From: Anaerolineae bacterium
Lineage (GTDB): Bacteria > Chloroflexota > Anaerolineae > CG2-30-64-16
Assembly: GCA_026645775.1 (NCBI GenBank)
Contig: JAPKMS010000040.1
Location: forward strand, 20,406-84,405
Length of the DNA: 64,000 nucleotides
Direction of reading: 5' to 3'
Shown in pieces: positions 1 through 30,597 of this stretch. The position numbers and the translations under genes were made by a program. The notes under the pieces were generated by a model. It worked only from the letters and a program-made list of their open reading frames with translations, was not told the origin of the DNA and searched no databases. Positions within the stretch are counted from its first letter, which is position 1, and each line of letters starts with the position of its first letter.

Positions 1-990
1 ATGCACGTGCTGCCTCGGCCGGTCAAGCTCTACTCCATCGGCCCGATCTTCCGCCACGAGGCGCCCCAGGCCGGCCGCTACCGCCAGTTCCACCAGTTCA
101 ACGTCGAGATGTTGGGCGAGATGGATCCCGCCGTGGACCTGGACGTGATGTCCGTTGCGTGGATGCTGTTGACGCGGTTGGGTTATCGCGGCCTCAACTT
201 CCAGCTTAACTCGACGGGGTGTCGCAAGTGCCGGCCAGGCTATCGGGCCGCGCTGGTGGACTATTTCAAGGCCTACGAGGATCGGCTCGGTGACGTGGAC
301 CGCCGCCGGCTGGCGATCAATCCGCTGCGGCTGTTGGATTCCAAGGAACCCGCGGTGCAGCCGCTGCTTGATGCGGCGCCGCACAGCGCGGATCACCTGT
401 GCGATGAGTGCGCGACGCACCTGGCAGGACTGCGCGGGTATCTGGCTGCATTGGGGATGCCCTACACGATCAACTTCCGGCTGGTGCGCGGGCTGGATTA
501 TTACACCAAGACGGTGTTTGAGGTGTGGGCCGAAGGGATCGGCTCGCAGTCGGCGGTTTGCGGCGGCGGCCGTTACGATGGCTTGGTCGAGGAGCTGGGC
601 GGCCCTCCCACACCGGGCATCGGCTTCGCAATGGGTATCGAGCGGGTGATCGCCAGCCTCAAGCAGCAGGGGATCACGCCTCCGGCGCTGGCCGAGCCGC
701 GTGTCCAGGTCTCACCACTGGGTGAGGCCGCGCGCCTGCCGGCTATCCGCCTGGTGAATGACCTGCGGGCCGCGGAAATCGGCGCGCTGCTGGCGTTCGG
801 CGGCCGCAGCCTGAAATCCCAGCTTAAGAGCGCGGACAAGGCCGGGGTCGCCTACACGGTCATCTTGGGCGACACGGAGCTGGCAAACGGCGTCGCTGTG
901 GTGCGCGATATGGCGAGCAGCCAGCAGGAAACAGTGGCTGCGGATGGCATCGTGGATTGGTTGCGGGCAAGAGTGATTCGTAACACGTGA
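1..990 (+). CDS. hisS: histidine--tRNA ligase (HisRS), 5'-truncated at window edge
   Basis: The 329-aa translation has the class II aaRS core and anticodon-binding region (YSIGPIFRHEAPQAGRYRQFHQFNVE, GLDYYTKTVFE, CGGGRYDGL). The gene runs off the left edge. Confidence 0.9.
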   Translation: MHVLPRPVKLYSIGPIFRHEAPQAGRYRQFHQFNVEMLGEMDPAVDLDVMSVAWMLLTRLGYRGLNFQLNSTGCRKCRPGYRAALVDYFKAYEDRLGDVDRRRLAINPLRLLDSKEPAVQPLLDAAPHSADHLCDECATHLAGLRGYLAALGMPYTINFRLVRGLDYYTKTVFEVWAEGIGSQSAVCGGGRYDGLVEELGGPPTPGIGFAMGIERVIASLKQQGITPPALAEPRVQVSPLGEAARLPAIRLVNDLRAAEIGALLAFGGRSLKSQLKSADKAGVAYTVILGDTELANGVAVVRDMASSQQETVAADGIVDWLRARVIRNT

Positions 991-1056
991 CACGTGGGAA
1001 CCTGGCGTCTGACGTATCCCGCGTCACGCATCACGCCGTTTCCACCGGAGGCGCAT

Positions 1057-4000
1057 ATGGACTTACGCGACTACCCTCGGCCAAAAGGCGACACCGGCAT
1101 CGGTGTTCATTGGAGCGCCGGTTTCCCGACTGCTGCCGGCTTGGCGCAAATCCGGGATGTTTGGGCGCCCGAGTTGCAGGCGCTGGGCGTCAAGTGGGTC
1201 AAGATCGCCCGGCATGACGGGGCGCTCGATCTGGCTGAGCTGCTGCTGAGCCGCGACATCATGCCCATCGTGCGGCTCCAGCGGCCGCAGCCCAATCCCT
1301 CCCGGCTGGACGAGACCCTGTTGCGCGCGGTCAAGGATCATGTGGCTGCCGGCGTGCGGTATTTCGAATTCAGCAGCGACCCCGATCGGGCCGCGGAGTG
1401 GCAGGGCGGCTATGTGCCTGGGGATGCGCTGGAGATCGTGGCGCGCAACGCCATCGCCGACATGGAGGCGATCCTGGCGTGCGGCGGCTTTCCCGGCATC
1501 CCGGCGGTGTCGCCCGCGTCCCGGTGGGATATCGTCGGCGAGATTTGCCGCCTGGGGCGTCGCGACCTGCTGGCGCAGCCCGTGTGGCAGGCGGTCCACA
1601 ACTACAGCTTCAACCGGCCCCTGGATTATCCGGCGGATGCCGGCAACCGAGAGGGCAAGCCGTGCAGCGCGGACTTTTATGGCCGGTTGGCCGGCGAAGC
1701 CTGGGAAGGCGATGCCTGGGGCGGCTGGAGTTTGGAGCGTGTCAACGAGGAGCGGCGTGAGCGAGCAAACCCGGCGCTCACCGCCTTTGAGGACCCGGCC
1801 TGCTGGCGCGCGTACGAGCGTTACGACCAGCTTATCCGGCGCCAGATTGGCCGCTCGCTGCCGATTCTGGCCACTGAAAACGGTCCCCTCGTGGGTCAAC
1901 GGGCCGACACGCGCTACCCGGCCGTGACCCCCCAATTGCACATGGCGCACACGCTGGAGGCCTGCCGTGTGATGATGGGCGCCAGCGTCCGGTTTGATCA
2001 CGCGCCGGACTATTACTTCTGCACCGCATTTTGGCTGCTGGGCAACTACGCGCTGGGCAACTGGACCCCTGAGTGGGAAAGTCAGGCCTGGTACAGCAGC
2101 CGTTGGCCCGGCGGGCAGCTTCCCATTGTCGCGGCGCTGCAGGCCGAGCCCAAGCTGGCCCGCGGGTGGCGCGGCGATGCGGGCGTGGCCGGCCGGGTGA
2201 GCGGCGCCGTGAAGGGCGGAGCCGGGCTGGCGGTGCAATTGCTGCGGGCTGATGGCTGGACCCTTGCCGGTCGCGTGGGTCCCGACGACCGCTATGAGTT
2301 CATCGATGTGCCGCCGGACCGCTATACTGTCCTCGTGGCCGGCGCGGGGCAGAGCGAGACCGTCACCCTGTCGCGCGAACGGCCCGCCGCGGCCGCCAAC
2401 TTCGATGTGGCCGGCGCCGCGCAGGTGTTTGGGGCGGGCGTGATCCGCGGCACAGTGCGCGGCGGCGCGGGGCTGATCGTGCGGCTGCTCCGTCCCAGCG
2501 ATGGCTGGACACAAGAGCAAGCCGCCGCCGAGAATGGCGCCTATGCGTTCAGCGGACTGCGGACTGGCGTCTACACCATCGGGCTGGCTGGCACGGCGAC
2601 GGCCCAGACCGGCGTGACCGTCGATGGCCGGGGCGAGCTCATCATGGATCTGGCCGCGCCTGGCTGGGGCTGGGAGCTGGTCGATGGCGGCCCCGGGCCG
2701 GGTTACGGCGTGGTGCGCTGTCGGGTGCTGGGCCGGGTGGATCAAGCGGTGCAGTTGTGGACCGCCGGCTGGGAGGGCATGCTGGCGCATACTGGCAGCC
2801 AGCCCGAGCTGGGCGCGGCCGACGTCTGCGAGTTTGCCCCCCTGGGGCCCGGCCGCTACAGCGTGCGCCCCCAGAACCTGGATGTGACCGCGGAGGTGCC
2901 GGTGGATGGCAGCCGCGTGATCTGGGTGAACTTCACCGAGCGCCTCGTTCACGCGACGGAACCCGGCGCGGCCGCTGCGGCGCCATCGCTCAAGGCCGAA
3001 CACGCGGTCGTAACCCGCGGCGTCAGCGCCGAACCGAGCGCGGAAACACCTGAGCTGCGCTGGGCGGTGGAAGATGGCGGGCCGGGACCCGGCCACAGCG
3101 TGGTCCGCTGTCGCGTGGCCGGGCAGACGGGTCGTGCGATCAGCCTGTGGGCCTACGGCTGGGGCGGCATCACGCAGTTCACCGGCAGCCAGCCGGACTA
3201 CGGCCCGGATGTGTGCGAGTTCGCACCCCTGGGGCCGGGCGTCTATTTCCTGGAATTGGAGGACGCCGACCCGGTCACGGGCGAGATGCGCACGGTGCGG
3301 GCCGAGGTCAAACTGGAGCCCAACCGGGTGCTTTGGGTTACCTTCGAGCATCCCGGTGACGGGCGCAGCGCGGAAGCCGCGCCGGCCATCGTCGCTGAAC
3401 CTGGGCCTGCGGCCTTTGGCGAGTCAGCGGCCGCGCCTGCGGTGACCGGCGAGAGCGTGATCGCGGGGATGGTGACCAACGGCGAAGGGCTGCTGCTGCT
3501 GTTGACCGGGCCGGCCGGCGAGGATCACGTCCGGGTCTCCGAGGGCCGTTATCGGTTCGACCGCTTGCCCATGGGGACTTATCGCCTGGCCGTGTTGGCG
3601 GGCGACGTTACCTCGGATGAGCTGGCCATCCGCGAGAGCCTGGCCATCGATGGGCGCAGCGCGGTCGTCGTAGATTTCGATCTGCCGGCGCAGCGCTTAT
3701 CTGAAAGCCGCGTGGCCGGCCGGGTGCGCGGCGGCGCCGGGCGCGCCATCGTCCTGGAAGGGCCTTTGACGGACGCCCTGACCGGTGCGGTGCGCACGGC
3801 CCTGGTGGCCCAGGATGAAACCTATAGTTTTGACGATCTGCCGGCGGGCAGCTATCGGGCCACCCTGCGCGACACCGAACCGCCGACCGGAACCGGGCAG
3901 ATTCAGAGCGGTATCGTGGTGGATGGCGCCAACAGTGTGCGCGTCGATTTCGGCCTGGACGCGTTGGGGCCGGGCAAGACGCTGGAGCACTACCTGCTGG

Positions 4001-4251
4001 CGGGCAGCATCGCGCGGTCTAAAGATGATTTTCTGACGGTTTTGCGCTACGTGGCGCGTTTCCGACCGGTGGTCGGCAGCGATGAGGCGGAGGCGCGGCG
4101 GGCCCGGCACGTCACCATCTTGGGCGGCGTCAGCGGTGTCAGCGCACTGGCCGAGCAAGGTCTTCGCTTGAGCGGCTGCCAGGTGCAGCGCATCGAAGGC
4201 GATTTTGCCGAGAACCTGGGCAAGTTGATCGACGAAGGCAGGGCGTACTGA
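1057..4251 (+). CDS. large multidomain protein with an N-terminal TIM-barrel-like (glycoside-hydrolase-like?) region, several CarboxypepD_reg/Ig-like beta-sandwich repeats, two copies of a novel roughly 95-aa module, and a C-terminal CWB2-like domain
   Basis: ORF 994..4251. The likely start is the ATG at 1057 (MDLRDYPRPKGD), which follows a CCGGAGG RBS. Internal repeats include GRVRGGAG(L/R)IV. The duplicated module reads W..DGGPGPG..VVRCRV.G....LW..GW.G....TGSQP.YGPDVCEFAPLGPG. The C-terminal roughly 85 aa are shared with the ORFs at 62204 and 63537. Confidence 0.7.
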   Translation: MDLRDYPRPKGDTGIGVHWSAGFPTAAGLAQIRDVWAPELQALGVKWVKIARHDGALDLAELLLSRDIMPIVRLQRPQPNPSRLDETLLRAVKDHVAAGVRYFEFSSDPDRAAEWQGGYVPGDALEIVARNAIADMEAILACGGFPGIPAVSPASRWDIVGEICRLGRRDLLAQPVWQAVHNYSFNRPLDYPADAGNREGKPCSADFYGRLAGEAWEGDAWGGWSLERVNEERRERANPALTAFEDPACWRAYERYDQLIRRQIGRSLPILATENGPLVGQRADTRYPAVTPQLHMAHTLEACRVMMGASVRFDHAPDYYFCTAFWLLGNYALGNWTPEWESQAWYSSRWPGGQLPIVAALQAEPKLARGWRGDAGVAGRVSGAVKGGAGLAVQLLRADGWTLAGRVGPDDRYEFIDVPPDRYTVLVAGAGQSETVTLSRERPAAAANFDVAGAAQVFGAGVIRGTVRGGAGLIVRLLRPSDGWTQEQAAAENGAYAFSGLRTGVYTIGLAGTATAQTGVTVDGRGELIMDLAAPGWGWELVDGGPGPGYGVVRCRVLGRVDQAVQLWTAGWEGMLAHTGSQPELGAADVCEFAPLGPGRYSVRPQNLDVTAEVPVDGSRVIWVNFTERLVHATEPGAAAAAPSLKAEHAVVTRGVSAEPSAETPELRWAVEDGGPGPGHSVVRCRVAGQTGRAISLWAYGWGGITQFTGSQPDYGPDVCEFAPLGPGVYFLELEDADPVTGEMRTVRAEVKLEPNRVLWVTFEHPGDGRSAEAAPAIVAEPGPAAFGESAAAPAVTGESVIAGMVTNGEGLLLLLTGPAGEDHVRVSEGRYRFDRLPMGTYRLAVLAGDVTSDELAIRESLAIDGRSAVVVDFDLPAQRLSESRVAGRVRGGAGRAIVLEGPLTDALTGAVRTALVAQDETYSFDDLPAGSYRATLRDTEPPTGTGQIQSGIVVDGANSVRVDFGLDALGPGKTLEHYLLAGSIARSKDDFLTVLRYVARFRPVVGSDEAEARRARHVTILGGVSGVSALAEQGLRLSGCQVQRIEGDFAENLGKLIDEGRAY

Positions 4252-4252
4252 G

Positions 4253-5098
4253 TTGAAATCACCGCATTCGATCGGGCTGCTGTATCAGCCCAAGAAACCG
4301 GAATCGGTCACGCTGGCGGATGAGATGGCGCGCTTCCTCAGCGCGCACGGGTGCGCTGTCTGGGCCGGCTCCGCGTGGGATGAGCCCGAGGCGTTAGCCC
4401 ATGTCGCCGGGCTGGATGTGCTGGTGACGTTGGGCGGCGACGGCACCATGTTGCGCGCGGCCCGCGTCGGCAGCCGGCACGGCGTGCCCATCCTCGGCAT
4501 CAAGCTGGGCCGGGTGAGCTTCCTGGGCGAGGTTCCGGCGGACGACTGGCAGGCGCCGATGCTGAAGATGCTGGCAGGCGACTACTGGCTGGAAGAGCGG
4601 ATGATGTTGGAGGTTCGGGTGGCGCGCGGCGGCGAGCCGCCTGTCAACCACTCCTATCAGGCGCTCAACGATGTCGTCATCAGCCGCGGGGGCATGGCGC
4701 GCCTGGTCACCATCGGAGCCTGGGTCGATCAACGTTACCTGACCAGTTACCGCGCCGATGGCGTGATCGTGTCGACGCCGACTGGGTGCACCGGCTATGC
4801 GTTGGCGGCCGGCGGGCCGATCCTGCCGCCTGAGCTGAAGAATATCCTGCTGATCCCGATCTGCCCGCACCTGAGCCTGGATCGCCCGGTGGTGCTGGCC
4901 CAGGGCGCCACCGTCATCTTGGAGGCGCACGCCGATTACGCGCCGATCCTCACGGTGGATGGTCAGTTCGAGATTGCCCTGGCCGAAGGCGACCGTGTAG
5001 AAGTGTTGGCGAGCCAACACGTCAGCAATTTTGTGCACATGCTGGATCGGGCCTATTTCTATCGGACGTTGATGGAACGTTTACGGTGGGCACTCTAG
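4253..5098 (+). CDS. nadK: NAD(+) kinase
   Basis: GGDGTMLRAAR motif and full-length similarity to PpnK/NadK. A TTG start sits 1 nt after the upstream stop. Confidence 0.85.
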   Translation: MKSPHSIGLLYQPKKPESVTLADEMARFLSAHGCAVWAGSAWDEPEALAHVAGLDVLVTLGGDGTMLRAARVGSRHGVPILGIKLGRVSFLGEVPADDWQAPMLKMLAGDYWLEERMMLEVRVARGGEPPVNHSYQALNDVVISRGGMARLVTIGAWVDQRYLTSYRADGVIVSTPTGCTGYALAAGGPILPPELKNILLIPICPHLSLDRPVVLAQGATVILEAHADYAPILTVDGQFEIALAEGDRVEVLASQHVSNFVHMLDRAYFYRTLMERLRWAL

Positions 5099-5661
5099 CC
5101 ATGACAGACGAAACACTCCCCACCCTGCGTTGCGCGAATCACCCCGCTCGCGAGACGATGTTGCGCTGCAACAAATGCGACAAGCCAATCTGTGTGCAGT
5201 GTGCGGTGCGCACCCCGGTCGGCTATCGGTGTAAAGAATGCGTGGCCGGCCAACAAGCCATTTTTTACAACGGCAACCCCTCTGATTCGCTGATCGCCGG
5301 CGCGGTCGCGCTGGTCCTGGGTGCGATCGCCGGCGCGTTGGCGTATGCGTTCCTGGGTTTCTTCGGTTGGTTCAGCTTCATCGCGGCCATCTTTGTCGGC
5401 CCGGTGGTCGGCGGCCTGATCGCGGAGGCGGCCCGCCGCGCAGTGCGCAAGCGGCGCTCCCGGCAGATGAAATGGATCGTCGCCGCGGCGTGCGTGATCG
5501 GCATCCTTGCGGGCGGCCTGTTGGTCACCGTGGGGCCGGCGCTCGGCTGGGGCGGCGCTGTGGCTGATTTTACCTGGATCATCCCGACTGTGTTCCTGCG
5601 CTGGGACGTGCTGCTCTTTGCCGCACTTGCTGCAAGCACGATCTATACAAGGCATCTGTGA
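5086..5661 (+). CDS. membrane protein with N-terminal B-box-like zinc ribbon (CxxC...CxxC...CxxC) and three or more TM helices
   Basis: CANHPARETMLRCNKCDKPICVQCAVRTPVGYRCKEC is followed by hydrophobic helices. No specific family was recognised. Confidence 0.5.
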   Translation: MGTLAMTDETLPTLRCANHPARETMLRCNKCDKPICVQCAVRTPVGYRCKECVAGQQAIFYNGNPSDSLIAGAVALVLGAIAGALAYAFLGFFGWFSFIAAIFVGPVVGGLIAEAARRAVRKRRSRQMKWIVAAACVIGILAGGLLVTVGPALGWGGAVADFTWIIPTVFLRWDVLLFAALAASTIYTRHL

Positions 5662-6908
5662 TGGCCGCGCCGCCCGCCGCTCGCAGTCAGCTCGCTGCTA
5701 CTTTTGCCGCCCTGCGCTATCCCAACTTCCAGCGCTGGTTCATCGGCCAGGCGCTCTCGTTGGCCGGCACCTGGATGCAGTCGGTCGCCCTGGGGTGGCT
5801 GGTCTACCAGATCACCGGCTCGAAGTTGGCGTTGGGCGCCATTACCGCCGCGGGAACCATCCCCACGCTTTTCTTTATGCTGCCCGCGGGTGTGCTTGCG
5901 GATCGGATGTCCAAGCGCCGGCTGCTGATGATTACCCAGGTCGTGATGATGATCAGCGCTCTGCTCCTGGCCGCGCTCACCTGGCTGGGAGTGCTCCAGG
6001 TGTGGCAGATCGCGGCGCTGGCATTGCTTTCGGGCATCGCCCAGTCGTTTGATGCCCCTGCCCGGCTGGCATTGACGCCGATGCTGGTCGATGACCGCCG
6101 TGACCTCCAGAACGCGATTGCGATGGGCTCGACGATCTTCAACCTCGCACGGGTGGTGGGCCCGGCCATCGGCGGGCTGGTGCTGGCGAGCATGGGCGCG
6201 GCGTGGTGCTTCGCGATCAACGGCGCCAGTTTTATCGCGGTGCTGATCGCGCTCTCGGGGATGAACCTGCCTGCCGACGTGGGCCGGCCGCCGAGCCAGC
6301 GGCACATGCTCGCGGAGATCGGCGACGGGCTGCGCTACGTGTGGCAGCAGCCGGTGGTGCGCACCCTGACCGTCCTGATCGGCGTCACTTCGATCTTCGG
6401 GTTCTCCTACTCGGTGCTGCTCCCGGCCTACGCGGTGGATGTGCTGAAGGTCGGTGAGACGGGCTACGGCCTGCTGAACGCGGCGGTGGGCGTCGGCGCA
6501 CTGGTCGGCGCGCTGACCGTCGCGTCGTTGAGCCGCCGGAAGAACAAGGGCGTGCAGCTCACGGTGGGCAACCTGATTTTTCCGCTGGCGGTGCTGGCCT
6601 TCGCTGTCACGCGCTCCTTCCCGCTGACCTTGGTCTGTATGGCGGGCGCAGGCATCGGGTTCGTCATCCAGAACGCCACCAGCAACACGATCATCCAGTT
6701 GATGGCGCCCGATGAGCTGCGCGGCCGCGTGATGAGCGTTTATGCGCTCTTCTTCTTTGGCACCACACCGATCGGCGCCCTGTTTGCGGGCGCCGTGGCC
6801 GAGCGGTGGGATTCCACGGCATCGATCGTGCTCGGCGCGGGCGTGACGCTGGCCTTTGCGTTGGTGATTTTCTTCTTCGTCCCGGCCGTGCGAAGGACGC
6901 AAATCTGA
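5658..6908 (+). CDS. MFS transporter
   Basis: Twelve hydrophobic segments and the MFS signature G(x)LADRMSKRRLL after TM2. Confidence 0.8.
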   Translation: MMAAPPAARSQLAATFAALRYPNFQRWFIGQALSLAGTWMQSVALGWLVYQITGSKLALGAITAAGTIPTLFFMLPAGVLADRMSKRRLLMITQVVMMISALLLAALTWLGVLQVWQIAALALLSGIAQSFDAPARLALTPMLVDDRRDLQNAIAMGSTIFNLARVVGPAIGGLVLASMGAAWCFAINGASFIAVLIALSGMNLPADVGRPPSQRHMLAEIGDGLRYVWQQPVVRTLTVLIGVTSIFGFSYSVLLPAYAVDVLKVGETGYGLLNAAVGVGALVGALTVASLSRRKNKGVQLTVGNLIFPLAVLAFAVTRSFPLTLVCMAGAGIGFVIQNATSNTIIQLMAPDELRGRVMSVYALFFFGTTPIGALFAGAVAERWDSTASIVLGAGVTLAFALVIFFFVPAVRRTQI

Positions 6909-6950
6909 CCCTTGTCTACCCATTTCCTTGTTTCCTGATCGACAAAGCCT

Positions 6951-8819
6951 ATGCTAACTGAACTCCGAATCCGTGACCTTGCCATCATTGACGAGCTCGA
7001 CCTGACCTTCGAGCCGGGCTTCAACGTGCTCACCGGTGAGACCGGCGCGGGCAAGTCGATCATCATCGACGCCGTCAACCTGCTGCTGGGTGACCGGGCC
7101 TCGGCTGATGTGGTGCGCGCCGGCGCGGAACGCACCGAGATCGAAGGCACGTACCAGCTTCGCGCTGCGGCCTCGGCGCGCCTGGCGCCGATCCTGGCCG
7201 AACATGGGTTGGAAGGCGACAGCCCGGACGAGCTCGTTCTGGCCCGCGAGGTGCGCGCCAATGGCCGTTCGATCGCCCGCGTCAACGGCCGGGCGGTCAC
7301 TACCGCCCTGCTGGGCGAGATCGGTGGGCGGCTGGTGGATGTGCACGGCCAGGGCGAACACCTCTCGCTGCTGCATGAACGGGAGCATCTTGGGTTGCTC
7401 GATCGCTATGCCGGGCTCAACGGGCAGGCCGCGGAGTTGGCCGAGCTGGTGCGGCGCGTGCGGGCCGTGCGGCGGGAACTGGAAGGGCTGCGCCAGAACG
7501 AGCGCGAGCGCGCCCGCCGCATCGATCTCCTCACCTACCAGATGGAAGAGATCGGCGCGGCCGCGTTGCAGCCGGGGGAGGAAGAGGCGCTGGAGGTCGA
7601 ACGCAAGCGCCTGGCCAACGCCGAGCAGCTTGCCGCTCTTAGCAGTGAGGCGGTCGCGCTCCTCGCCGGCGGCGATGATCCCGCGGAGGGGGAGCGGCTG
7701 GGCGCGGTGGATGCCCTGGGCGCGGCCGAGCAGGCGCTGACACGCCTCGCGCGCATTGACCCTGGCGCAGGGCCGCTGGCCGAACAACTCGGCGAGGCGG
7801 CCGCGGTGCTGGCCGATCTGACACACGAGCTGACGCGCTACCGCGAGGCTGTCGAGTTCAACCCCCGGCGGCTGGGACAAGTGGAGGAGCGCATCTATCT
7901 GCTCCATGCCCTGCAGCGCAAATACGGGGACACGGTGGCCGAGGTGTTGGCCTACGCCGAGCGCGCTGCGGCCGAGCTCGAGACCATCGGCCACGCGGAG
8001 GAGCGCATCGCCGATCTGGAAGCCGAGGAGGCCGGGCTGCTGAGCCGGATCGGCGCGGCCGGCGCGACGCTCTCGGCCAGGCGGCGGGCGGCCGGCGTGA
8101 CCCTGGCCCGCGCCATCGAGGCTGAGCTGGCCGATTTACAGATGGCCAAGGCGCGTTTCGCCGCCGACATCCACTGGACGGCCGATCCGACGGGCGCGAT
8201 CCTGGATGCGGAGACGGCCGCACAGGCCGGGCAGCCAGCCGGTCGCTATGCCTTCGACGGCCACGGGCTGGACGCGGTGGCTTTCCTCATCTCGGCCAAC
8301 CCCGGCGAGCCGCTGAAACCGATGGCCAAGGTGGCTTCCGGCGGCGAAACCTCACGGCTGATGCTGGCCCTGAAAACCGTCCTTGGCCGCGCCGATGAAA
8401 CCCCGACCCTGATTTTTGACGAGATCGACCAGGGCATCGGCGGCCGCGTGGGCGGCACGGTGGGCAGGAAGCTGTGGGAGCTGAGCAGGGGTCAGGAGTC
8501 AGGGGTCAGGAGACAGGAGTCAGGAGACAGGAGTCAGGAGACAGGGACCCGCTTCCAGCTTCTAGCTTCCAGCCACCAGGTTTTGTGCATCACCCACTTG
8601 CCGCAATTGGCGGCCTACGGCGACGCGCATTTTCGCGTCTCGAAGCATATCGTCGGCGAGCGGACGCTCACCGAGGTCAGCGTCTTGACGGACGAGGCCC
8701 GCGTGGCCGAGCTGGCGCAGATGATGGGCGCGGATTCCGAAGTCGGCCGCAGCAGCGTCGCAGAGATGCTGGGCGAAGTGGCGAGCCTTAAGCAAGCGAA
8801 AGGCGGAGATCTCAAATGA
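6951..8819 (+). CDS. recN: DNA repair protein RecN, carrying an in-frame low-complexity insertion
   Basis: N-terminal SMC-like Walker A (LTGETGAGKSIIIDAV), coiled-coil middle, C-terminal signature and Walker B (ASGGETSRLMLAL...LIFDEIDQGIGG). There are about 28 extra residues (RGQESGVRRQESGDRSQETGTRFQLLAS) before the HQVLCITHLPQ motif. Confidence 0.9.
   Translation: MLTELRIRDLAIIDELDLTFEPGFNVLTGETGAGKSIIIDAVNLLLGDRASADVVRAGAERTEIEGTYQLRAAASARLAPILAEHGLEGDSPDELVLAREVRANGRSIARVNGRAVTTALLGEIGGRLVDVHGQGEHLSLLHEREHLGLLDRYAGLNGQAAELAELVRRVRAVRRELEGLRQNERERARRIDLLTYQMEEIGAAALQPGEEEALEVERKRLANAEQLAALSSEAVALLAGGDDPAEGERLGAVDALGAAEQALTRLARIDPGAGPLAEQLGEAAAVLADLTHELTRYREAVEFNPRRLGQVEERIYLLHALQRKYGDTVAEVLAYAERAAAELETIGHAEERIADLEAEEAGLLSRIGAAGATLSARRRAAGVTLARAIEAELADLQMAKARFAADIHWTADPTGAILDAETAAQAGQPAGRYAFDGHGLDAVAFLISANPGEPLKPMAKVASGGETSRLMLALKTVLGRADETPTLIFDEIDQGIGGRVGGTVGRKLWELSRGQESGVRRQESGDRSQETGTRFQLLASSHQVLCITHLPQLAAYGDAHFRVSKHIVGERTLTEVSVLTDEARVAELAQMMGADSEVGRSSVAEMLGEVASLKQAKGGDLK
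8486..8573 (+). repeat. AGGAG-containing heptad tandem repeat (CAGGAGT/CAGGAGA, about 6 units) plus a CTTCCAGCTTCTAGCTTCCAGC tail, located in-frame inside recN
   Basis: Direct reading: ggtcaggagtcaggggtcaggagacaggagtcaggagacaggagtcaggagacaggga cccgcttccagcttctagcttccagcc. Confidence 0.6.
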
Positions 8820-9229
8820 CGCAAGCTGCGAACAATCCCCAGAAACCGGCTGCTGAAGCGATTCAGGCCTGGCTGATTGCAAATGTGGCGGAAGCCCTCG
8901 GCATCGACCCGCACGAAATCGACATTCACGAGCCACTGGAGTCCTACGGCCTGTCGTCCCGGGATGCCGTGTCGCTGACCGGCGACCTGGAGGATTGGCT
9001 GAGCTGCCGCGTTTCTCCCACGCTCGTGTGGGAGTATCCGACCATCGAGGCCATCGCCCACTACCTCAGCGGGGATGCATCGGGAGAAACAGCGCAGACC
9101 CGCCTGGGGGTTGCGCAGGCCGACGCGGCGCCCCTGCGGCCGGCTACGACGGCAGCCGAGCTGGCAGAGATGTCGGACGAGGAAGCGGAGGCTCTGCTGC
9201 TGCAGAAGCTGACCGACCTGGGGCAGTAG
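8816..9229 (+). CDS. standalone phosphopantetheine-binding carrier protein (PKS/NRPS ACP/PCP type)
   Basis: LGIDPHEIDIHEPLESYGLSSRDAVSLTGDLEDWL...PTLVWEYPTIEAIAHYL matches the PP-binding helix II motif (GLxS) and PKS ACP flanks. The ATG overlaps the recN stop (ATGA). Confidence 0.6.
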   Translation: MTQAANNPQKPAAEAIQAWLIANVAEALGIDPHEIDIHEPLESYGLSSRDAVSLTGDLEDWLSCRVSPTLVWEYPTIEAIAHYLSGDASGETAQTRLGVAQADAAPLRPATTAAELAEMSDEEAEALLLQKLTDLGQ

Positions 9230-9248
9230 TCGCATCGGGAGTGAAGCC

Positions 9249-9788
9249 ATGCTTATCCGGGCCGCCCAACTGAACGATGCCGCAGCGATCGCGCGGGTCC
9301 ATGTGGACTCCTGGCGAGCGGCATATCGCGACATCCTGTCTGCAAGCTTTCTGGCTGAGCTTTCGTATGCGGCGCGCGAGCAGCGTTGGCGCGAATGGTG
9401 GACGCAGGCCGACCCGCAACGGTGGCTGTTCGTGGCTGAAGATGACGCTGGCCGTATCATCGGGTTTGCCGGGGGCGGCCCAGAGCGCGATGCGATCCCC
9501 GGCTATGGCGGCGAGGTGTATGCGATCTACCTGGCGCCCGAAACCTTTCGTCGCGGGATCGGGCGACGCCTGATGGCCGTCGGTGCGGGCAAGCTGATCG
9601 ACCAGGGCTTTGGCGCCGGACTGGTGTGGGCGCTGGAAGACAATCGCGCCGCGCGGGCGTTTTACGAGGCGCTGGGGGGGCAGCTTATGGGCACCAAACC
9701 GGTCACCATCGGCGGTACGACGCTGACCGAGGTCGCTTACGGCTGGTCGGATCTGCGCACGCTGTGCGCGGCCGGAGATGAGGCATGA
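9249..9788 (+). CDS. GNAT family N-acyltransferase
   Basis: GNAT motif A region (RRGIGRRLMAVGAGKLIDQGF) in a 179-aa protein. Confidence 0.75.
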   Translation: MLIRAAQLNDAAAIARVHVDSWRAAYRDILSASFLAELSYAAREQRWREWWTQADPQRWLFVAEDDAGRIIGFAGGGPERDAIPGYGGEVYAIYLAPETFRRGIGRRLMAVGAGKLIDQGFGAGLVWALEDNRAARAFYEALGGQLMGTKPVTIGGTTLTEVAYGWSDLRTLCAAGDEA

Positions 9789-10633
9789 AACTGACCCGTT
9801 ATGAGGCTGCCGATGCCTTCGTGGCGCGCGCCCGGGACTGGCTGGAGCAAAATGAGGCCGCCAACAACCTGATCCTGGGCATCGCCGTGCGCCTGGCCGA
9901 ATATCCCGACCGGGTCAAGGCGCCGCCCTACCTGGCGACGGTCGAGGCGGACGGCGCGCTGGCAGCCGCGGCCGTGATGACACCGCCGCATCGTGTCGTG
10001 CTCTACTCGGCCGCAGGCGCCGACCCTGCGCCCCTGGTCCCGCTCCTGGACGATTTGCGGGCCGGCGGCTGGCACGTGCCGGGCGTGATGGCCCCGGCGG
10101 CCACGTCTGAAGCGTTCGCCTGGCTCTGGGCAGCGGCGACCGGCGGCGACTACCGCCCCGCCATGCGTGAGCGCGCCTATGAGCTGCGCCGCGTGATCCC
10201 GCCTGCGGCCGTCCCCGGTCACTTGCGGCCGGCGACGGAGACGGACCTGCCGCTGGCAGCGGACTGGGTTTATCGGTTCATGCAGGACGCTGGGTTGCCG
10301 GGCACAGTCGAAGGCGCGCAGGAACTTGCCGAGATTCGCATCGCTGACCGCGATCTGTTTATCTGGGATAACGGCGGGCCAGCTTCGATGGCCGCCAAGA
10401 CGCGCCACAGCACCCACGGCATCGTCGTTAGCCTGGTTTTCACCCCGCGCGAGCTGCGCGGGCAGGGCTATGCGTCGGCGTGTGTAGCGGCTTTGAGCCA
10501 GCAGTTGTTGGATGCCGGTTGGGAGTTCTGTGCGCTTTTCACCGATCTGGCCAACCCCATCTCCAACGACATCTACCAGCGCATCGGCTACCGGCCGGTG
10601 TGCGACTTCAATGAGTACGATTTTGATGCTTAA
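9785..10633 (+). CDS. GNAT-fold acyltransferase with N-terminal extension
   Basis: C-terminal GNAT core (LRGQGYASACVAALSQQLLDAGWEFCALFTDLANPISNDIYQRIGY). The start overlaps the upstream stop (ATGA). Confidence 0.65.
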   Translation: MKLTRYEAADAFVARARDWLEQNEAANNLILGIAVRLAEYPDRVKAPPYLATVEADGALAAAAVMTPPHRVVLYSAAGADPAPLVPLLDDLRAGGWHVPGVMAPAATSEAFAWLWAAATGGDYRPAMRERAYELRRVIPPAAVPGHLRPATETDLPLAADWVYRFMQDAGLPGTVEGAQELAEIRIADRDLFIWDNGGPASMAAKTRHSTHGIVVSLVFTPRELRGQGYASACVAALSQQLLDAGWEFCALFTDLANPISNDIYQRIGYRPVCDFNEYDFDA

Positions 10634-10769
10634 CATCACCCGACGACTGAACGTCGCAGCAACCTTTGCAAAGTCGGCCGCCGCCGCCGACTGAGATGAG
10701 TCCAGGAAGGTGAACTTTGCGGAGGTTGCCGCGATTTCAATCGCCGGGGAACCACTCAACAGGAGAGAT

Positions 10770-12578
10770 GTTGTGTCTACCCAAACCATCCCCGCCCACA
10801 GCGATATCGATCCGAAATACACCTGGAACGCGCCCAGCGTCTTCCCGTCCGATGCCGCCTGGGACGCCGAGTGCGTCAGCGTCGCGCAGGATCTGGCCGG
10901 CCTGCGGGCTTACCAGGGCCGCCTGGCAGAGGGTCCCGACGCCTTGGCCGAGGCGGTGACCGCCATCGAGCATCTCTTCCGCCGGGTCTACAAGCTGTAC
11001 GCCTACGCGGGCATGGCCTACGCGGTGGACACCACCGATCAGGCCGCAGCCAAGCGCAATGGCCGGGCCCAGGCGTTGTTCGGCCAGACGGCGGCCGCCG
11101 CGGCTTTCTTTGATCCCGAGCTGTTGGCCCTTGGCGAGCCGACGCTGCGGCGCTGGCTGGCCGAGGATGCCCGGCTGGCTTACCTGGACCACTACGTGGA
11201 TAATCTCTTCCGCAAACAGGCGCACATCCGCTCGGCCGAGGTGGAGGAGTTGTTGGGTCTGCTGGCCGACCCGTTCGGGAACACCGCCATGACCCAAAGC
11301 ATGTTGGCCGATGCCGATTTCAAGTTCCCGTTCGCAGTTGCCGGCGACGGAACCCAACGGCCGGTGACCCAGGGCGCCCTGGGCGAGATCCTCTCTGGCC
11401 CGGACCGGGAGGCGCGGCGCACGGCCTGGGAAGGCTACATGGACACCTACCTGGCCCACAAAAACACCCTGGCCTCGAATTTAATGACCTCGGTCAAGAA
11501 TTACGTCTTCACCATGCGCGCTCGCCGTCACGCCAGCACGCTGGAGATGGCGCTGCACGGTCCCAATATCCCGGTGGCGGTTTACCGGAACCTGATCGAT
11601 ACCTTCAAGAAGAACCTGCCCACCTGGCATCGCTATTGGCAGGTGCGGCGTCGGGCGTTGGGCGTGGAAACGCTGGAACCCTACGACATCTGGGCGCCGC
11701 TCGCTAAGACCCGCCCGCAGATCCCGTACGCGCAAGCCGTCGCCACGATCTGCGATGGGTTGGCGCCGTTGGGGCAGGCGTACGTGGAAACTGTGCGCCG
11801 CGGCTGTCTGCAAGACCGCTGGGTGGACGTCTACCCGTGTCAGGGTAAGATGGGCGGCGCGTTCTCATCCGGTGCGCCCGATACCTTCCCGTTCATCATG
11901 ATGAGCTACACCGACGAGGTGTTCAGCATGAGCACGCTGGCGCATGAGCTGGGCCACTCGATGCACTCCTACCTCACCTGGCAGAACCAGCCCGCCCTCT
12001 ACAGCGACTACACGATGTTTGTGGCCGAGACCGCCTCCAACTTCCACCAGGCCATGGTGCGCGCCCACTTGCTGGAGACCGCGACCGATCCCGCCTTCCT
12101 GTTGGGGACGTTGGAAGAGGCGATGTCCAACTTCCACCGCTACTTCTTTATCATGCCCACGCTGGCCCAGTTTGAGCTGGCCGTGCACGAGGCCGAAGAG
12201 CGCGGGGAAGGCATGAGCGCGGATGACATGATCGGGCTGATGGCTGACCTGTTCAGTGAGGGCTACGGCGGCGGCGTACACGTGGATCGCGAGCGGACGG
12301 GGATCACCTGGGCCACTTTCTCGCACCTGTATGCCGACTACTATGTCTTCAACTACGCCACCGGGATTTCGGCAGCCAATGCGCTCGCACTGCGTGTCCG
12401 CTCAGGGACGCCTGGCGCGGCCGATGACTATCTGCGGTTCCTGAAGGCCGGCAACTCGCTCTACCCCGTGGATGCGCTGAAGGTGGCCGGCGTTGACATG
12501 ACCACCCCCGCACCGGTGGAGGCCGCGTTCGCCGTGCTCGCCGGGCTGGTGGATCGGCTGGAGAAGCTGGTCGGGTGA
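10770..12578 (+). CDS. pepF: oligoendopeptidase F (M3B family)
   Basis: HELGHSMH zinc-binding HEXXH plus M3 architecture. GTG start at 10770 behind an AGGAGA RBS. The ATG at 10710 is less likely. Confidence 0.85.
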   Translation, partial: VVSTQTIPAHSDIDPKYTWNAPSVFPSDAAWDAECVSVAQDLAGLRAYQGRLAEGPDALAEAVTAIEHLFRRVYKLYAYAGMAYAVDTTDQAAAKRNGRAQALFGQTAAAAAFFDPELLALGEPTLRRWLAEDARLAYLDHYVDNLFRKQAHIRSAEVEELLGLLADPFGNTAMTQSMLADADFKFPFAVAGDGTQRPVTQGALGEILSGPDREARRTAWEGYMDTYLAHKNTLASNLMTSVKNYVFTMRARRHASTLEMALHGPNIPVAVYRNLIDTFKKNLPTWHRYWQVRRRALGVETLEPYDIWAPLAKTRPQIPYAQAVATICDGLAPLGQAYVETVRRGCLQDRWVDVYPCQGKMGGAFSSGAPDTFPFIMMSYTDEVFSMSTLAHELGHSMHSYLTWQNQPALYSDYTMFVAETASNFHQAMVRAHLLETATDPAFLLGTLEEAMSNFHRYFFIMPTLAQFELAVHEAEERGEGMSADDMIGLMADLFSEGYGGGVHVDRERTGITWATFSHLYADYYVFNYATGISAANALALRVRSGTPGAADDYLRFLKAGNSLYPVDALKVAGVDMTTPAPVEAAFAVLAGLVDRLEKLVG

Positions 12579-12584
12579 GTTTTC

Positions 12585-12619
12585 AGAAACCCGGTTTCTC
12601 CGAGAAACCGGGTTTCTCC
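12585..12619 (+). terminator. tandem near-palindromic 15-mers (agaaacccggtttct / agaaaccgggtttct) after pepF; hairpin or terminator-like
   Basis: Each unit is self-complementary and the two units are mutual reverse complements. Sits directly after the pepF stop. Confidence 0.4.
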
Positions 12620-12641
12620 ACAGAAGCCGGTAGGATGGAGC

Positions 12642-13562
12642 ATGGCTGAGATGATCCGGTTGGCCGATGGTCGCCGGCTGGCCTACGCCGAATACGGCGA
12701 TCCTGATGGCGCCCCGGTGTTCTTTTTCCAGGGCACGCCGAGCTCGCGGCTGATGCACCCCGACGAGGCCGTGACGCGTGATCTCGGCGCGCGGCTCATC
12801 GTGGCGGATCGGCCCGGCTTCGGCCTGTCCGACCCCAAACCCGGCCGCACGCTGCTGGACTGGCCCGACGACATCGTCGCGCTGGCGGACGCGTTGGGCA
12901 TCGGCCGCTTCGGCCTGGTCGGCATCTCTGGCGGCGGGCCCTACGCGGCCGCGTGCGCCTACAGGATCCCGCAGCGCCTGACCGCGGTCACGATTGTCGG
13001 CGGCAGCGGGCCGGTGGATCTGCGCAACACGCTTGCGGGCGCGGCGAGGGAGCGCCACATCGGCTACGTGCTGGCCCAGCGTGCGCCCTGGCTGTTGCGG
13101 TTGGTGATCCTGCTGGCGCGCAACCCGCGGCGCAACCCCGCCCGCTTTCAAGCGCAGTTCAGCCAGGGCGCGGCCGCGGCCGATCGGGCCATCATGGCGC
13201 GGCCGGCGATGCGTGAGATGTTCGTGCGCAGCTACGCCGAGGCATCGCGCCAGGGCGTGACCGCCTTCGCCGATGAGGTGATCCTGGCGTCGAAGCCCTG
13301 GGGCTTTCCCCTGCAAGACATCACGACGCCGGTCCACCTGTGGCATGGAGAGGAGGATCGCAACACCCCCCTCGCGATGGCGCGGGCGATGGCCGCGGCG
13401 ATCCCGAACTGCTGCACGACTTTCCTGCCGGGCGAAGGGCACCTGTTCCTGTTTGAGCGGTGGGGGGAGATTTTGGGCGATTTGCTGACGATCAGCGAGG
13501 TGAGGGGAAGGGCGATGATCGAAGAAAAACTGGAGCCGATACATCCTGGCGAAGTCTTGTAG
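12642..13562 (+). CDS. alpha/beta hydrolase
   Basis: GISGGG nucleophile elbow and alpha/beta hydrolase fold pattern. The 3' end is co-linear, in the same frame, with the higA-like start. Confidence 0.75.
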   Translation: MAEMIRLADGRRLAYAEYGDPDGAPVFFFQGTPSSRLMHPDEAVTRDLGARLIVADRPGFGLSDPKPGRTLLDWPDDIVALADALGIGRFGLVGISGGGPYAAACAYRIPQRLTAVTIVGGSGPVDLRNTLAGAARERHIGYVLAQRAPWLLRLVILLARNPRRNPARFQAQFSQGAAAADRAIMARPAMREMFVRSYAEASRQGVTAFADEVILASKPWGFPLQDITTPVHLWHGEEDRNTPLAMARAMAAAIPNCCTTFLPGEGHLFLFERWGEILGDLLTISEVRGRAMIEEKLEPIHPGEVL

Positions 13563-13797
13563 GAAGAATTCATAAAGCCACTGGCTCTGAGCCAGAATCG
13601 CCTGGCCATCGCCATCGGCGTGCCGGCGCGGCGCATCAACGAGGTCGTGCTGGGCCGGCGCGGCATCACGGCCGACACGGCGTTACGCCTGGCACGTTTC
13701 TTCGGCAATTCGCCGCAGTTTTGGCTGGGCTTGCAAGCCGACTACGATCTCGACATCGCCCGAAGCGTCCTGGGCGCCCGGCTGGCACGCGAGTGAG
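13515..13797 (+). pseudogene. higA: higA-family (XRE-HTH) antitoxin interrupted by an in-frame TAG at 13560-13562
   Basis: A GAGGGGA RBS precedes the ATG at 13515. The translation MIEEKLEPIHPGEVL-stop-EEFIKPLALSQNRLAIAIGVPARRINEVVLGRRGITADTALRLARFFGNSPQFWLGLQADYDLD is a canonical HigA/VapI sequence. No higB is adjacent. Confidence 0.6.
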
Positions 13798-13983
13798 GTC
13801 CTATGCCGGCGTACGTGAGGAAGGCCCGGAGTACGAGGGCTGAGTCTCCAAAGACATAATCGAACACCGAAAAAGGGACGCAGATTTACCTGATCTACCT
13901 GATTTTCCGTTTTTTCATCTTCGTCTGTGCCCCGACAGGGGCGTGGACGCTAATCCAGACCACCTTAATGAGGACACACCGCC

Positions 13984-15474
13984 GTGATCCATATTTATCC
14001 ACCCACCCTCGACGCGGCCCATGCTGAGTTCCTGGCCGCGTACCCATCCTACACGACGACGGCCGCGCTGGACGACCTGCGCACCCGCGAATACGCGCGA
14101 CTGGACGCGGCCGGCCATGTCTACCTGGACTACACCGGCGGCGGGCTGTACGCCGAGAGCCAGTTGCGGGGGCACCTCGATCTGCTGAGCTGCGGCGTCT
14201 TCGGCAACCCGCACTCGCACAATCCGACCTCCCAGGCCATGACGTGCCTGGTGGATGACGCGCGGTCGTACGTGCTGGAGTATTTCAATGCGCCGCCGGG
14301 GGAGTACGTCGCCATCTTCACGCAGAACGCCAGCGGCGCGCTCAAGCTGGTGGGCGAGGCATACCCGTTCGAGCCGGGCGACCGCTACCTGCTCACCTTC
14401 GATAACCATAATTCGGTCAACGGCATCCGCGAGTTCGCGCGGAGCAAAGGCGCGGCGTTCACCTACCTGCCGGTCGTCCAGCCGGAGCTGCGCATCGACC
14501 CGGCGACGTTGGCCGCGCATCTCGACCTGGCTCAGCCCGGCCGCCACAACCTGTTCGCGTTCCCGGCGCAGTCCAACTTCACCGGCGTGCAGCACCCGCT
14601 GGAGATGATCGCCCAGGCGCGGGCCAAGGGGTGGGACGTGCTCGTGGACGCGGCGGCGTTCGCACCGACCAACCGGCTCGACCTGGCCCGCTGGCTGCCC
14701 GATTTCGTGCCGCTGTCGTTCTACAAGATGTTCGGCTATCCCACCGGCGTCGGCTGCCTGCTGGCGCGCAAATCTGCGCTGGAGAAGCTGGTCCGGCCCT
14801 GGTACGCGGGCGGCACAATCACCATCTCGTCGGTGCAGGGGGACGGCCACTATCTCGTCCCGGGCGAGGCCGGCTTCGAGGACGGCACGGTCAACTACCT
14901 GAACATCCCCGCGGTCGAGATCGGCCTGCGCCACCTGGCCGCGGCCGGCATCGATGTCATCCACGAGCGGGCCATGTGCCTGGCCGGCTGGCTGATTGAC
15001 AGCCTGACCCGCCTGCGACACAGCACCGGCCAACCGCTCGTCCGCCTCCACGGCCCGGCGAGCCTGAATGGGCGCGGCGGCACCGTCACGGTGAGCTTCT
15101 ACGACCGGGACGGGCAGCAGCTCGACGACCGGCGCATTGAGGAGTTGGCCGGCCATCAGCGCATCTCGCTGCGCACCGGCTGTTTCTGCAACCCCGGCGC
15201 GGGCGAGGTGGCTCACGGGCTGACGCCGGAGATCATGCGCGAGTTCTTCCGCGGCCCGGCGCCGCTGTCGTTCCAGGAGCTGCGCGCCGAGATGCGCGCC
15301 CGCTTCGGCATGGACGTCAGCGCGGTGCGGCTGTCGGTGGGCATCGCCTCCACCTTCGCCGACGTGGATACGTTCATCCGCTTCGCAGCCCGGCTCCTCG
15401 ATCACACCGCGGCCGAGATCGGTGCAGTCGAGGTCACAGATCCCGGCTGCTCGGTGGATCGCGACGCGGCATAA
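13984..15474 (+). CDS. class V aminotransferase-fold PLP enzyme of the Moco-sulfurase (ABA3/MCSU NifS-like domain) type, without a MOSC domain
   Basis: VYLDYTGGGLYAESQL, FGNPHS, LEYFNAPPGEY, SFYKMFGYPTGVGCLL and RTGCFCNPGAGE are recalled to match the NifS-like domain of eukaryotic Moco sulfurases. GTG start. Confidence 0.7.
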   Translation: MIHIYPPTLDAAHAEFLAAYPSYTTTAALDDLRTREYARLDAAGHVYLDYTGGGLYAESQLRGHLDLLSCGVFGNPHSHNPTSQAMTCLVDDARSYVLEYFNAPPGEYVAIFTQNASGALKLVGEAYPFEPGDRYLLTFDNHNSVNGIREFARSKGAAFTYLPVVQPELRIDPATLAAHLDLAQPGRHNLFAFPAQSNFTGVQHPLEMIAQARAKGWDVLVDAAAFAPTNRLDLARWLPDFVPLSFYKMFGYPTGVGCLLARKSALEKLVRPWYAGGTITISSVQGDGHYLVPGEAGFEDGTVNYLNIPAVEIGLRHLAAAGIDVIHERAMCLAGWLIDSLTRLRHSTGQPLVRLHGPASLNGRGGTVTVSFYDRDGQQLDDRRIEELAGHQRISLRTGCFCNPGAGEVAHGLTPEIMREFFRGPAPLSFQELRAEMRARFGMDVSAVRLSVGIASTFADVDTFIRFAARLLDHTAAEIGAVEVTDPGCSVDRDAA

Positions 15475-26068: not shown

Positions 26069-26839
26069 ATGGGCGTCATCATCGCACTGGCCAACCAGAA
26101 AGGCGGCGTCGGCAAAACGACGTCCACCATTAACCTGGGCGCGGCCCTGGCCGAGCGCGGCCTTCGCGTCCTCGTGGTCGATCTGGATCCCCAGGCCGCA
26201 CTCTCCCACGGGCTCGGCATCCAGGCCGAAGATCTGTCGAATACCATCTACAACCTGCTGGTGGACCCCGACCAGGATGCAGCCAAGGCGCTGCTGCCGG
26301 TGCGCAGCGGGATGGATCTGTTGCCGGCGAATATCGACCTGGCCGCGGCCGAGATCGAGCTGGTGTCCGCGCTCAGCCGAGAGTCGCTTTTGAAGGACGC
26401 GCTGGCGCCGTTGCGGCCGCGTTACGACTTCATCCTGATCGATTGCGGGCCGAATCTGGGGTTGCTGACGCTCAACGCGTTGACCGCGGCCGATGCGGTG
26501 CTGATTCCGTTGCAGTGCGAGTATTTTGCGTTGCGGGCGCTGACGATCCTGCTGAAGACGGTGACGCGCGTGCGCGCCCGGCTGAACCCCAATCTAGAAG
26601 TGGCCGGCATCCTGGGCACGATGTATCAGACGGGCACTCGCCACGCCGAGGAAGTGTTGGGCCAGGCGCGGGCCTTATTTGGCCAACGGGTGTTTGACAT
26701 CTACATCAAAAAAAGCATCCGGTTTGCCGAGGCGTCGGCCGTCGGCAAGTCGCTGTTGGAATATGCCCCCGATCACGAGGGCGCTCATGCTTATCGAGCT
26801 CTTGCGGAGGTGATCATCCATGACTACAGCCAGAAGTAG
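26069..26839 (+). CDS. ParA/Soj-family P-loop ATPase
   Basis: Deviant Walker A KGGVGKTT and full ParA-fold similarity. Confidence 0.85.
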   Translation: MGVIIALANQKGGVGKTTSTINLGAALAERGLRVLVVDLDPQAALSHGLGIQAEDLSNTIYNLLVDPDQDAAKALLPVRSGMDLLPANIDLAAAEIELVSALSRESLLKDALAPLRPRYDFILIDCGPNLGLLTLNALTAADAVLIPLQCEYFALRALTILLKTVTRVRARLNPNLEVAGILGTMYQTGTRHAEEVLGQARALFGQRVFDIYIKKSIRFAEASAVGKSLLEYAPDHEGAHAYRALAEVIIHDYSQK

Positions 26840-30406: not shown

Positions 30407-30597
30407 GGCACCTGTGATGCGTGGCGGCTTGCACTTTTGGGTGCGATTCTACCCCAGTCCGCAGTGAGCGTCAACTGCTGTTTTAGCCGCCCCGCGGATT
30501 CGCGGAAGTTGGCCTACCCAAACATTTGTGCTATCCTGGCCGATGTACGAACCTGCTTTGTTTCTGGGAAACGTCGATCTGTGGTAAAATAGATCAG

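Follow-up and report, generated by a model that had tools for sequence, protein, structure and literature searches.

Within a 64,000-nucleotide stretch of an Anaerolineae bacterium genome (contig JAPKMS010000040.1, positions 20,406 to 84,405 of the forward strand; hereafter the window), a gene encoding a free-standing acyl carrier protein (CP; 8816–9229, + strand, 137 aa, PF00550) lies between the DNA-repair gene recN and two genes for acetyltransferases of the GNAT (Gcn5-related N-acetyltransferase) type, GNAT1 and GNAT2. CP is a protein of a known kind; what is unusual is its place in the genome, which is specific to one lineage. We consider it somewhat probable that CP is an orphan loading acyl carrier protein (ACP), inserted between recN and the GNAT1-GNAT2 pair and working in trans with partners encoded elsewhere. 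If this is true, a biosynthetic carrier-protein gene has moved away from its cluster and been kept under selection.

The 137-aa open reading frame (ORF) is a genuine carrier protein of the polyketide synthase (PKS) type, as an earlier note on this DNA had proposed. It scored 60.9 bits, above the cut-off of 20.8, for the PP-binding family PF00550 of Pfam (E 1.4e-16), and its best partial NCBIfam matches were the N-terminal ACP of Pks13 (the top match, over Pks13 positions 4–82) and the ACP of FadD22. A profile search of PDB sequences with the CP family recovered Asl1650 of Anabaena (3.9e-24), a free-standing carrier protein of Acinetobacter, LipD and the N-terminal ACPs of Pks13. In the AlphaFold2 (AF2) model, residues 13–84 form a four-helix bundle (predicted local distance difference test, pLDDT, 82–90), followed by disordered residues 89–116 and a C-terminal helix at 121–136. 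Foldseek searches with this model gave TMt values of 0.8–0.9 to 4hkg, 6c4q, 6d8i, 7wrp and 2afd, the best folds being the free-standing carrier protein (4hkg), the Pks13 N-terminal ACP and Asl1650. The predicted 4'-phosphopantetheine attachment site is Ser48 (codon 8957–8959, +), the second serine of GLSSR in the context YGLSSRDAV; it lies where helix 2 begins, and it aligns with the serine of Pks13 GLSSRD and with that of YGLDS in 4hkg and LipD. The earlier note had made its assignment depend on the conservation of this residue, which proved invariant in 19 homologues retrieved by a word-indexed search. The motif GLSSRD(A/V)V is common to CP and the Pks13 N-terminal ACPs of C. diphtheriae and M. 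tuberculosis, and the longer signature YGLSSRDAV...GDLEDWL is common to CP and to loci linked to fatty acyl-AMP ligases (FAALs) or ketosynthases (KSs). On these sequence likenesses, CP is best placed in the class of loading ACPs that are charged by FAALs in type I PKS systems, such as the Pks13 N-terminal ACP and JamC-like proteins.

The genomic settings of CP relatives agree with this placement. We fetched 80 metagenomic loci with CP-like ACPs and searched these and one further locus, L015, by tblastn (81 in total); a FAAL was found in 48 of the 81, a KS in 55, and one or the other in 63, and the 18 loci with neither were nearly all on short contigs. In about half of the 80 fetched loci, the ACP forms the N-terminal domain of a large type I PKS of ACP-KS order, and in the others it is fused after a FAAL or is a stand-alone protein of 100–135 aa. 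Architectures of the relatives include a FAAL-ACP-KS fusion (L116), a FAAL/LLM/ACP-KS series (L161), and a FAAL followed by an ACP with a C-terminal tail and then a PKS (L015, L125). An exhaustive HMMER search recovered 8369 relatives, in which the clade of CP was a single representative at 50% clustering. The best 150 were megasynthases or ACPs of 96–216 aa, several of them with the tail, and the proteins of 400–700 aa in this set were tandem ACP repeats. Because the relatives of CP are associated with FAALs and PKSs, they point to partners encoded elsewhere. A distinct, tail-less subfamily of stand-alone ACPs, 51–54% identical to CP, was also observed (L119, 4545–10724; also L120, L126 and L138). 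They are preceded by an 801-aa fusion of aminotransferase-III and reductase and by a fatty-acid desaturase, and followed by a 782-aa protein that has no Pfam match; a FAAL lies about 7 kb away on the opposite strand. Their setting is one of lipid tailoring and differs from the ACP-KS arrangement.

To quantify the selection acting on CP, we computed dN/dS against three relatives, at dS of about 0.5–1.6. Values were 0.21–0.31 overall and 0.26–0.33 in the bundle. The linker (residues 89–112; 9080–9151, +) had dN/dS of about 1, varied in length and was modelled at pLDDT below 50, indicating an unconstrained and predicted disordered segment. The C-terminal tail TTAAELAEMSDEEAEALLLQKLTDLGQ (residues 113–137; 9152–9226, +), a predicted docking-type helix, was the most constrained part of the protein, with dN/dS of 0.02–0.05. 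Judged by its evolution, CP is under purifying selection and appears to be functional, and the strong constraint on the tail points to a specific protein partner and speaks against CP being a remnant in decay. A tail of the form SD(E/D)EAEALLLxKL is also carried by stand-alone ACPs that directly precede PKS proteins (L015, L125), and these PKS proteins begin with L(S/T)PLKRALLA, followed by the KS; homologues in which ACP and KS are fused have no tail. A similar motif, LS(D/E)xE(A/V)xxLL, ends other PKS subunits in the fetched metagenomic loci. The tail is thereby predicted to behave as a C-terminal docking element; no second docking tail was found in the six frames of the window.

CP shares features with several known systems and differs from each of them. 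The N-terminal ACP of Pks13, the mycolic acid condensase, is loaded by the FAAL FadD32. It resembles CP in the GLSSRD(A/V)V motif and in fold class, and it supplied the best NCBIfam and PDB matches; however, it is fused to KS, acyltransferase (AT), ACP and thioesterase domains and is encoded beside fadD32, whereas CP is free-standing and has no FAAL or KS within 64 kb. The cyanobacterial-type, FAAL-associated stand-alone ACPs JamC, ClyB, Asl1650 and LipD are, like CP, small and free-standing and have a C-terminal extension. FAAL-associated ACPs dock to the next PKS through docking domains, as in the JamC-JamE and ClyB-ClyE pairs (PMC7923214). The same JamC-type order, with a FAAL, an ACP with its tail and a PKS with an N-terminal dock and a KS, is seen in the CP relatives L015 and L125. 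Unlike the JamC-type proteins, CP is encoded outside a biosynthetic cluster, between recN and the GNAT genes in a housekeeping string. The tail also recalls the class 2 docking domains of PKSs (reviewed in PMC9113145). As in the class 2 domains of cis-AT PKSs (CurG/H, CurK/L, Bamb_5925/24), it is predicted to be a short C-terminal helical element after a flexible linker, but it has no sequence match to the solved examples, it was modelled as one helix rather than two and at low pLDDT (about 57–60 for residues 121–136), and its cognate N-terminal partner was not found in the window.

The history of the locus suggests that CP is a late arrival among its neighbors. All close homologues of CP (58–100% identity, in nine 90% clusters, with the ORF intact in all nine) lie within the string hisS-...-nadK-zf-MFS-recN-CP-GNAT1-GNAT2-pepF-hydrolase. 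We compiled a synteny table of 80 genomic GNAT2 loci. In the nearest genome, that of an uncultured Anaerolineales bacterium (L016; GNAT2 82% identical), the order is recN-GNAT1-GNAT2-pepF without CP, and in three further sisters (L096, L097 and L098; GNAT2 78–83% identical) recN likewise leads straight to GNAT1. The distance from the recN stop to the GNAT1 start is 2 nt in all four of these CP-less sisters. The more distant locus L020 has recN-GNAT2-pepF, with neither CP nor GNAT1, and in about 75 further loci, which range from Chloroflexota to Fictibacillus and cyanobacteria, the 10 kb around GNAT2 contain no CP. A DNA alignment of four CP-bearing and four CP-less loci placed a clean insertion of about 440 bp, relative to the CP-less sisters, at this recN-GNAT1 junction (approximately 8805–9246, +). 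The inserted segment brings a new C-terminal extension of recN, the gene for CP and, ahead of GNAT1, a new spacer that supplies a Shine-Dalgarno sequence to that gene; the recN stop and the last few recN codons fall inside the segment. In a simple neighbor-joining tree of nadK, recN, GNAT2 and pepF with 9 taxa, the CP-bearing loci were monophyletic (94.5% bootstrap) and the CP-less loci fell outside. The co-occurrence of CP with the GNATs is restricted to this one monophyletic clade, and elsewhere GNAT1-GNAT2 or GNAT2 alone is found. The simplest history would begin with recN-GNAT2, followed by the gain of GNAT1 and then by a single gain of CP. CP thus appears to be an insertion of about 440 bp into an older recN-GNAT string, made in the ancestor of one small, uncultured Anaerolineales clade. 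The presence of the GNATs without CP, in the sisters and elsewhere, indicates that they pre-date CP and do not need it.

The anatomy described in the earlier note was confirmed from the ORFs and the sequence. The genes recN (6951–8819, +; 622 aa; TIGR00634 equivalog), CP, GNAT1 (9249–9788, +; 179 aa; a single-domain GNAT of the Acetyltransf_1 family) and GNAT2 (9785–10633, +; 282 aa; a tandem-GNAT protein with the catalytic GNAT in its C-terminal half) follow one another closely in the same direction. The recN stop and the CP start overlap as ATGA, the CP-GNAT1 spacer is 19 nt long and has GGGAG, and GNAT1 and GNAT2 again overlap as ATGA. The GC content at third codon positions (GC3) of the four genes is 0.74–0.83, as in real genes, in a window of 65% GC, and that of CP (0.78) is ameliorated. 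Such packing is routine in this DNA: with longest-ORF starts, 14 of the 41 co-directional neighbor pairs in the window overlap and 10 more lie within 25 nt, and recN itself sits within a 13-kb run of a dozen co-directional and functionally unrelated genes. Should CP be an orphan loading ACP, the locus would also caution that overlapping genes, in compact and GC-rich genomes, say little about a shared function. Given that overlaps are routine here and that the adjacency of recN and the GNATs is older than CP, the arrangement offers no support for an acyl-transfer unit coupled to recN.

If CP is indeed an orphan loading ACP, it would be converted to its holo form at Ser48 by a phosphopantetheinyl transferase (PPTase) encoded outside the window, and a FAAL, likewise encoded outside the window, would load an acyl chain onto Ser48. 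The conserved tail would then deliver CP to its partner, for which the N-terminus of a PKS with a KS, encoded elsewhere in the genome, is the most likely candidate. We infer these PPTase, FAAL-loading and docking steps from the FAAL/PKS context that is otherwise near-universal in the family. CP would probably be co-expressed, and presumably co-transcribed, with the densely packed nadK...recN...pepF string; recN, GNAT1 and GNAT2 would be its neighbors by insertion and not its pathway partners. For genome mining, this would be a warning that the gene for a loading ACP with a docking tail may lie at a great distance from those for its FAAL and PKS.

Several observations weigh against this interpretation. 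The partners in trans are hypothetical, the scan having covered 64 kb of the genome. In agreement with the statement in the earlier note that no synthase, ligase or PPTase is nearby, Pfam searches of practically all credible ORFs of the window found no AMP-binding/FAAL, KS, AT, condensation or PPTase domain and no second ACP, and tblastn with FAAL and KS queries gave no match in the window; FAAL and KS were absent from the ten recN-type loci as well. No N-terminal docking motif of the L(S/T)PLKRALL type occurs in the six frames of the window, and the tail searched alone against PDB sequences gave nothing meaningful and no match to solved docking domains. The tree that groups the CP-bearing loci is a simple one of few taxa. 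The position of CP beside GNAT1 has been kept in every CP-bearing genome, over the whole range of 58–100% identity, and CP may have evolved a new link to its neighbors.

That last point bears on the proposal, made in the earlier note, that CP works with the two GNATs as a minimal module for acyl transfer, in which holo-CP would carry an acyl or malonyl group and GNAT1 and/or GNAT2 would transfer it to an amine or decarboxylate it. We regard this as unlikely. In its favor, all CP-bearing relatives retain the order and spacing of CP, GNAT1 and GNAT2, purifying selection acts on CP, and GNAT-fold enzymes that act on acyl-ACP substrates are well known, among them the CurA-type PKS loading GNATs, FeeM/NAS, OlsB and LuxI. 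The synteny with the GNATs thus held within the CP-bearing clade, but it did not extend beyond it: GNAT1-GNAT2 occurs without CP in four sisters and GNAT2 alone in about 75 loci across phyla, so that the idea of a dedicated unit coupled to recN was not upheld. Neither GNAT matches the families of these acyl-ACP enzymes; both pre-date CP and are widespread without an ACP. Pfam searches detected no PF13444, LuxI or HlyC match and no PKS loading-GNAT architecture in GNAT1 or GNAT2, which speaks against the GNAT-type loading or decarboxylation suggested in the earlier note. GNAT1 instead matched Acetyltransf_1 (PF00583; 2.6e-15, 57 bits) and is a full-length homologue of a probable acetyltransferase of Thermus thermophilus (PDB 1wk4/2cy2; 3.8e-39 for 1wk4). 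GNAT2 matched FR47 (28 bits) and Acetyltransf_1 in its C-terminal half, and its AF2 model is a tandem GNAT (pLDDT 94.9) for which Foldseek returned VipF, bovine glycine N-acyltransferase (TM 0.72), MshD and other tandem GNATs, all of them acyl-CoA enzymes. In Pfam, the two proteins matched generic models (Acetyltransf_1/_3/_7/_10, FR47, GNAT_acetyltran), and both resemble ordinary enzymes that use acetyl-CoA or acyl-CoA. The GNAT2 family is large: it counts at least 997 proteins, and its genomic matches number at least 585, from Chloroflexota to Fictibacillus, cyanobacteria and Thermotogae. Neither GNAT gained an N-terminal extension in the CP clade, their N-termini being unchanged on the arrival of CP, and no ACP-GNAT fusion was seen among the best 150 of the 8369 CP relatives, as judged by length. 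The CP tail, moreover, is of a type predicted to dock to PKS N-termini.

A FAAL-loaded CP might also hand its acyl chain to a partner other than a PKS, such as a desaturase, a reductase/aminotransferase or a lipid acyltransferase encoded elsewhere, in a secondary lipid pathway. The L119-type relatives lend some substance to this idea, as these close stand-alone ACPs adjoin a fatty-acid desaturase and an aminotransferase-reductase instead of a KS, in a layout resembling the JamA-JamB-JamC arrangement. However, they do not have the SDEEAEALLL tail, and the tail-bearing relatives with readable context (L015 and L125) precede KS-bearing proteins; we consider the lipid pathway improbable. That CP has been co-opted locally, either as a stoichiometric partner of RecN through its invariant C-terminal helix or as an acyl donor or acceptor for the GNATs, strikes us as very unlikely. 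Such a protein would link acyl or metabolic state to DNA repair, and CP binding RecN or feeding the GNATs would matter much more than a displaced loading ACP, but nothing that we found points there. A narrower form of this idea, in which CP was recruited as an accessory of RecN, a protein resembling those of the structural maintenance of chromosomes (SMC) family, and translational coupling ensures co-production of the two, could appeal to the ATGA overlap, kept in three of the four sampled lineages, and to the extreme conservation of the tail, which implies a protein partner. It also has a precedent in the need of the SMC-like ATPase MukBEF for AcpP, which associates with MukB (PMC8602292). 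AcpP, however, is the housekeeping ACP of fatty acid synthesis and acts on MukB post-translationally, not as a gene neighbor, whereas CP is encoded beside recN. The L009 lineage has 17 nt between recN and CP in place of the overlap; the sisters have a normal recN without CP; a variable insert in recN is not specific to the CP clade; and CP is of the PKS loading type rather than the AcpP type. With overlaps routine in this genome, we judge the recruitment of CP by RecN to be highly improbable. Least credible of all is that CP is a decaying, functionless remnant of a PKS gene fragment. In favor of decay, no partner genes accompany the orphan CP in the 64 kb and its linker evolves neutrally, but the low dN/dS (0.2–0.3 overall and lower still in the tail, at the dS given above), the ORF intact in nine clusters, the invariant Ser48 and the ameliorated GC3 are hard to reconcile with decay.

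The recN gene is securely identified (TIGR00634; 530.5 bits against a cut-off of 407.85, E 6.4e-159). At 8486–8573 it contains a tandem repeat, its period being 7/14 nt (about 8.6 copies of CAGGAGT, then three of GCTTCCA), which encodes a low-complexity insert, GQESGVRRQESGDRSQETGTRFQLLASS, just before the RecN motif HQVLCITHLPQ. We considered whether this insert might be specific to the CP clade and rejected the idea, as a variable insert is also present in CP-less relatives; its length and sequence vary in all relatives, whether they carry CP or not, and L097 has a much longer version. The repeat unit is not a multiple of three and lies in an essential part of the gene, where slippage could cause frameshifts; the recN ORFs compared were all intact except in L096. 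In that locus (contig_21952, 439 kb), two ORFs, split or truncated, stand in place of each of nadK, recN and pepF, and these look like frameshifts from long-read assembly rather than real pseudogenes.

The conserved string occupies positions 1–13562 of the window and consists of hisS, a large surface protein, nadK, a zinc-finger membrane protein, MFS_3, recN, (CP), GNAT1, GNAT2, pepF and an alpha/beta hydrolase. It is conserved in the window and in L007, L009, L012, L016, L020 and L096–L098, with some changes by lineage: MFS_3 has been lost in L016 and L097, and in L096 and L098 an inserted CBM_11-like protein follows pepF and HicAB toxin-antitoxin genes lie downstream of the string. Between nadK and MFS/recN, the clade always has a 191-aa protein (5086–5661, +) that overlaps both neighbors and has an N-terminal B-box-like zinc ribbon (CxxC...CxxC), predicted membrane segments and only a marginal match to zf-B_box. 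Downstream of GNAT2, pepF was confirmed as an NCBIfam equivalog. Its longest ORF (10710–12578, +) has a GTG start and encodes 622 aa. Gene calls in relatives give 601 aa, and translation probably begins about 63 nt downstream of 10710, which would widen the gap between GNAT2 and pepF to about 140 nt. Between recN and GNAT2, a scan of positions 4000–14000 showed neither a sigma-70-like promoter nor a terminator, a result that is uninformative for Chloroflexota. There was no LexA box (GAAC-N4-GTTC) upstream of recN, the single match, at 47252, being within chance expectation.

The window is of housekeeping character throughout, with hisS, nadK, recN, pepF, gyrB, clpB, a class A penicillin-binding protein, opp and ECF transporters, EPSP synthase and others. 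The housekeeping acpP was not found in the window by tblastn with an E. coli AcpP query. Two genes (994–4251, +, and 62204–63532, -) had only weak SdrD_B, CarboxypepD_reg or Ig-like repeat matches and probably encode cell-surface proteins; the larger, of 1085 aa, adjoins hisS in all relatives. Three further ORFs, of 448 aa (26820–28166, +), 394 aa (30526–31710, +) and 139 aa (63537–63956, -), had coding-like GC3 and no Pfam match at E≤0.01, and the first of them comes after a gene for a ParA/MinD-like ATPase, with a 20-nt overlap.

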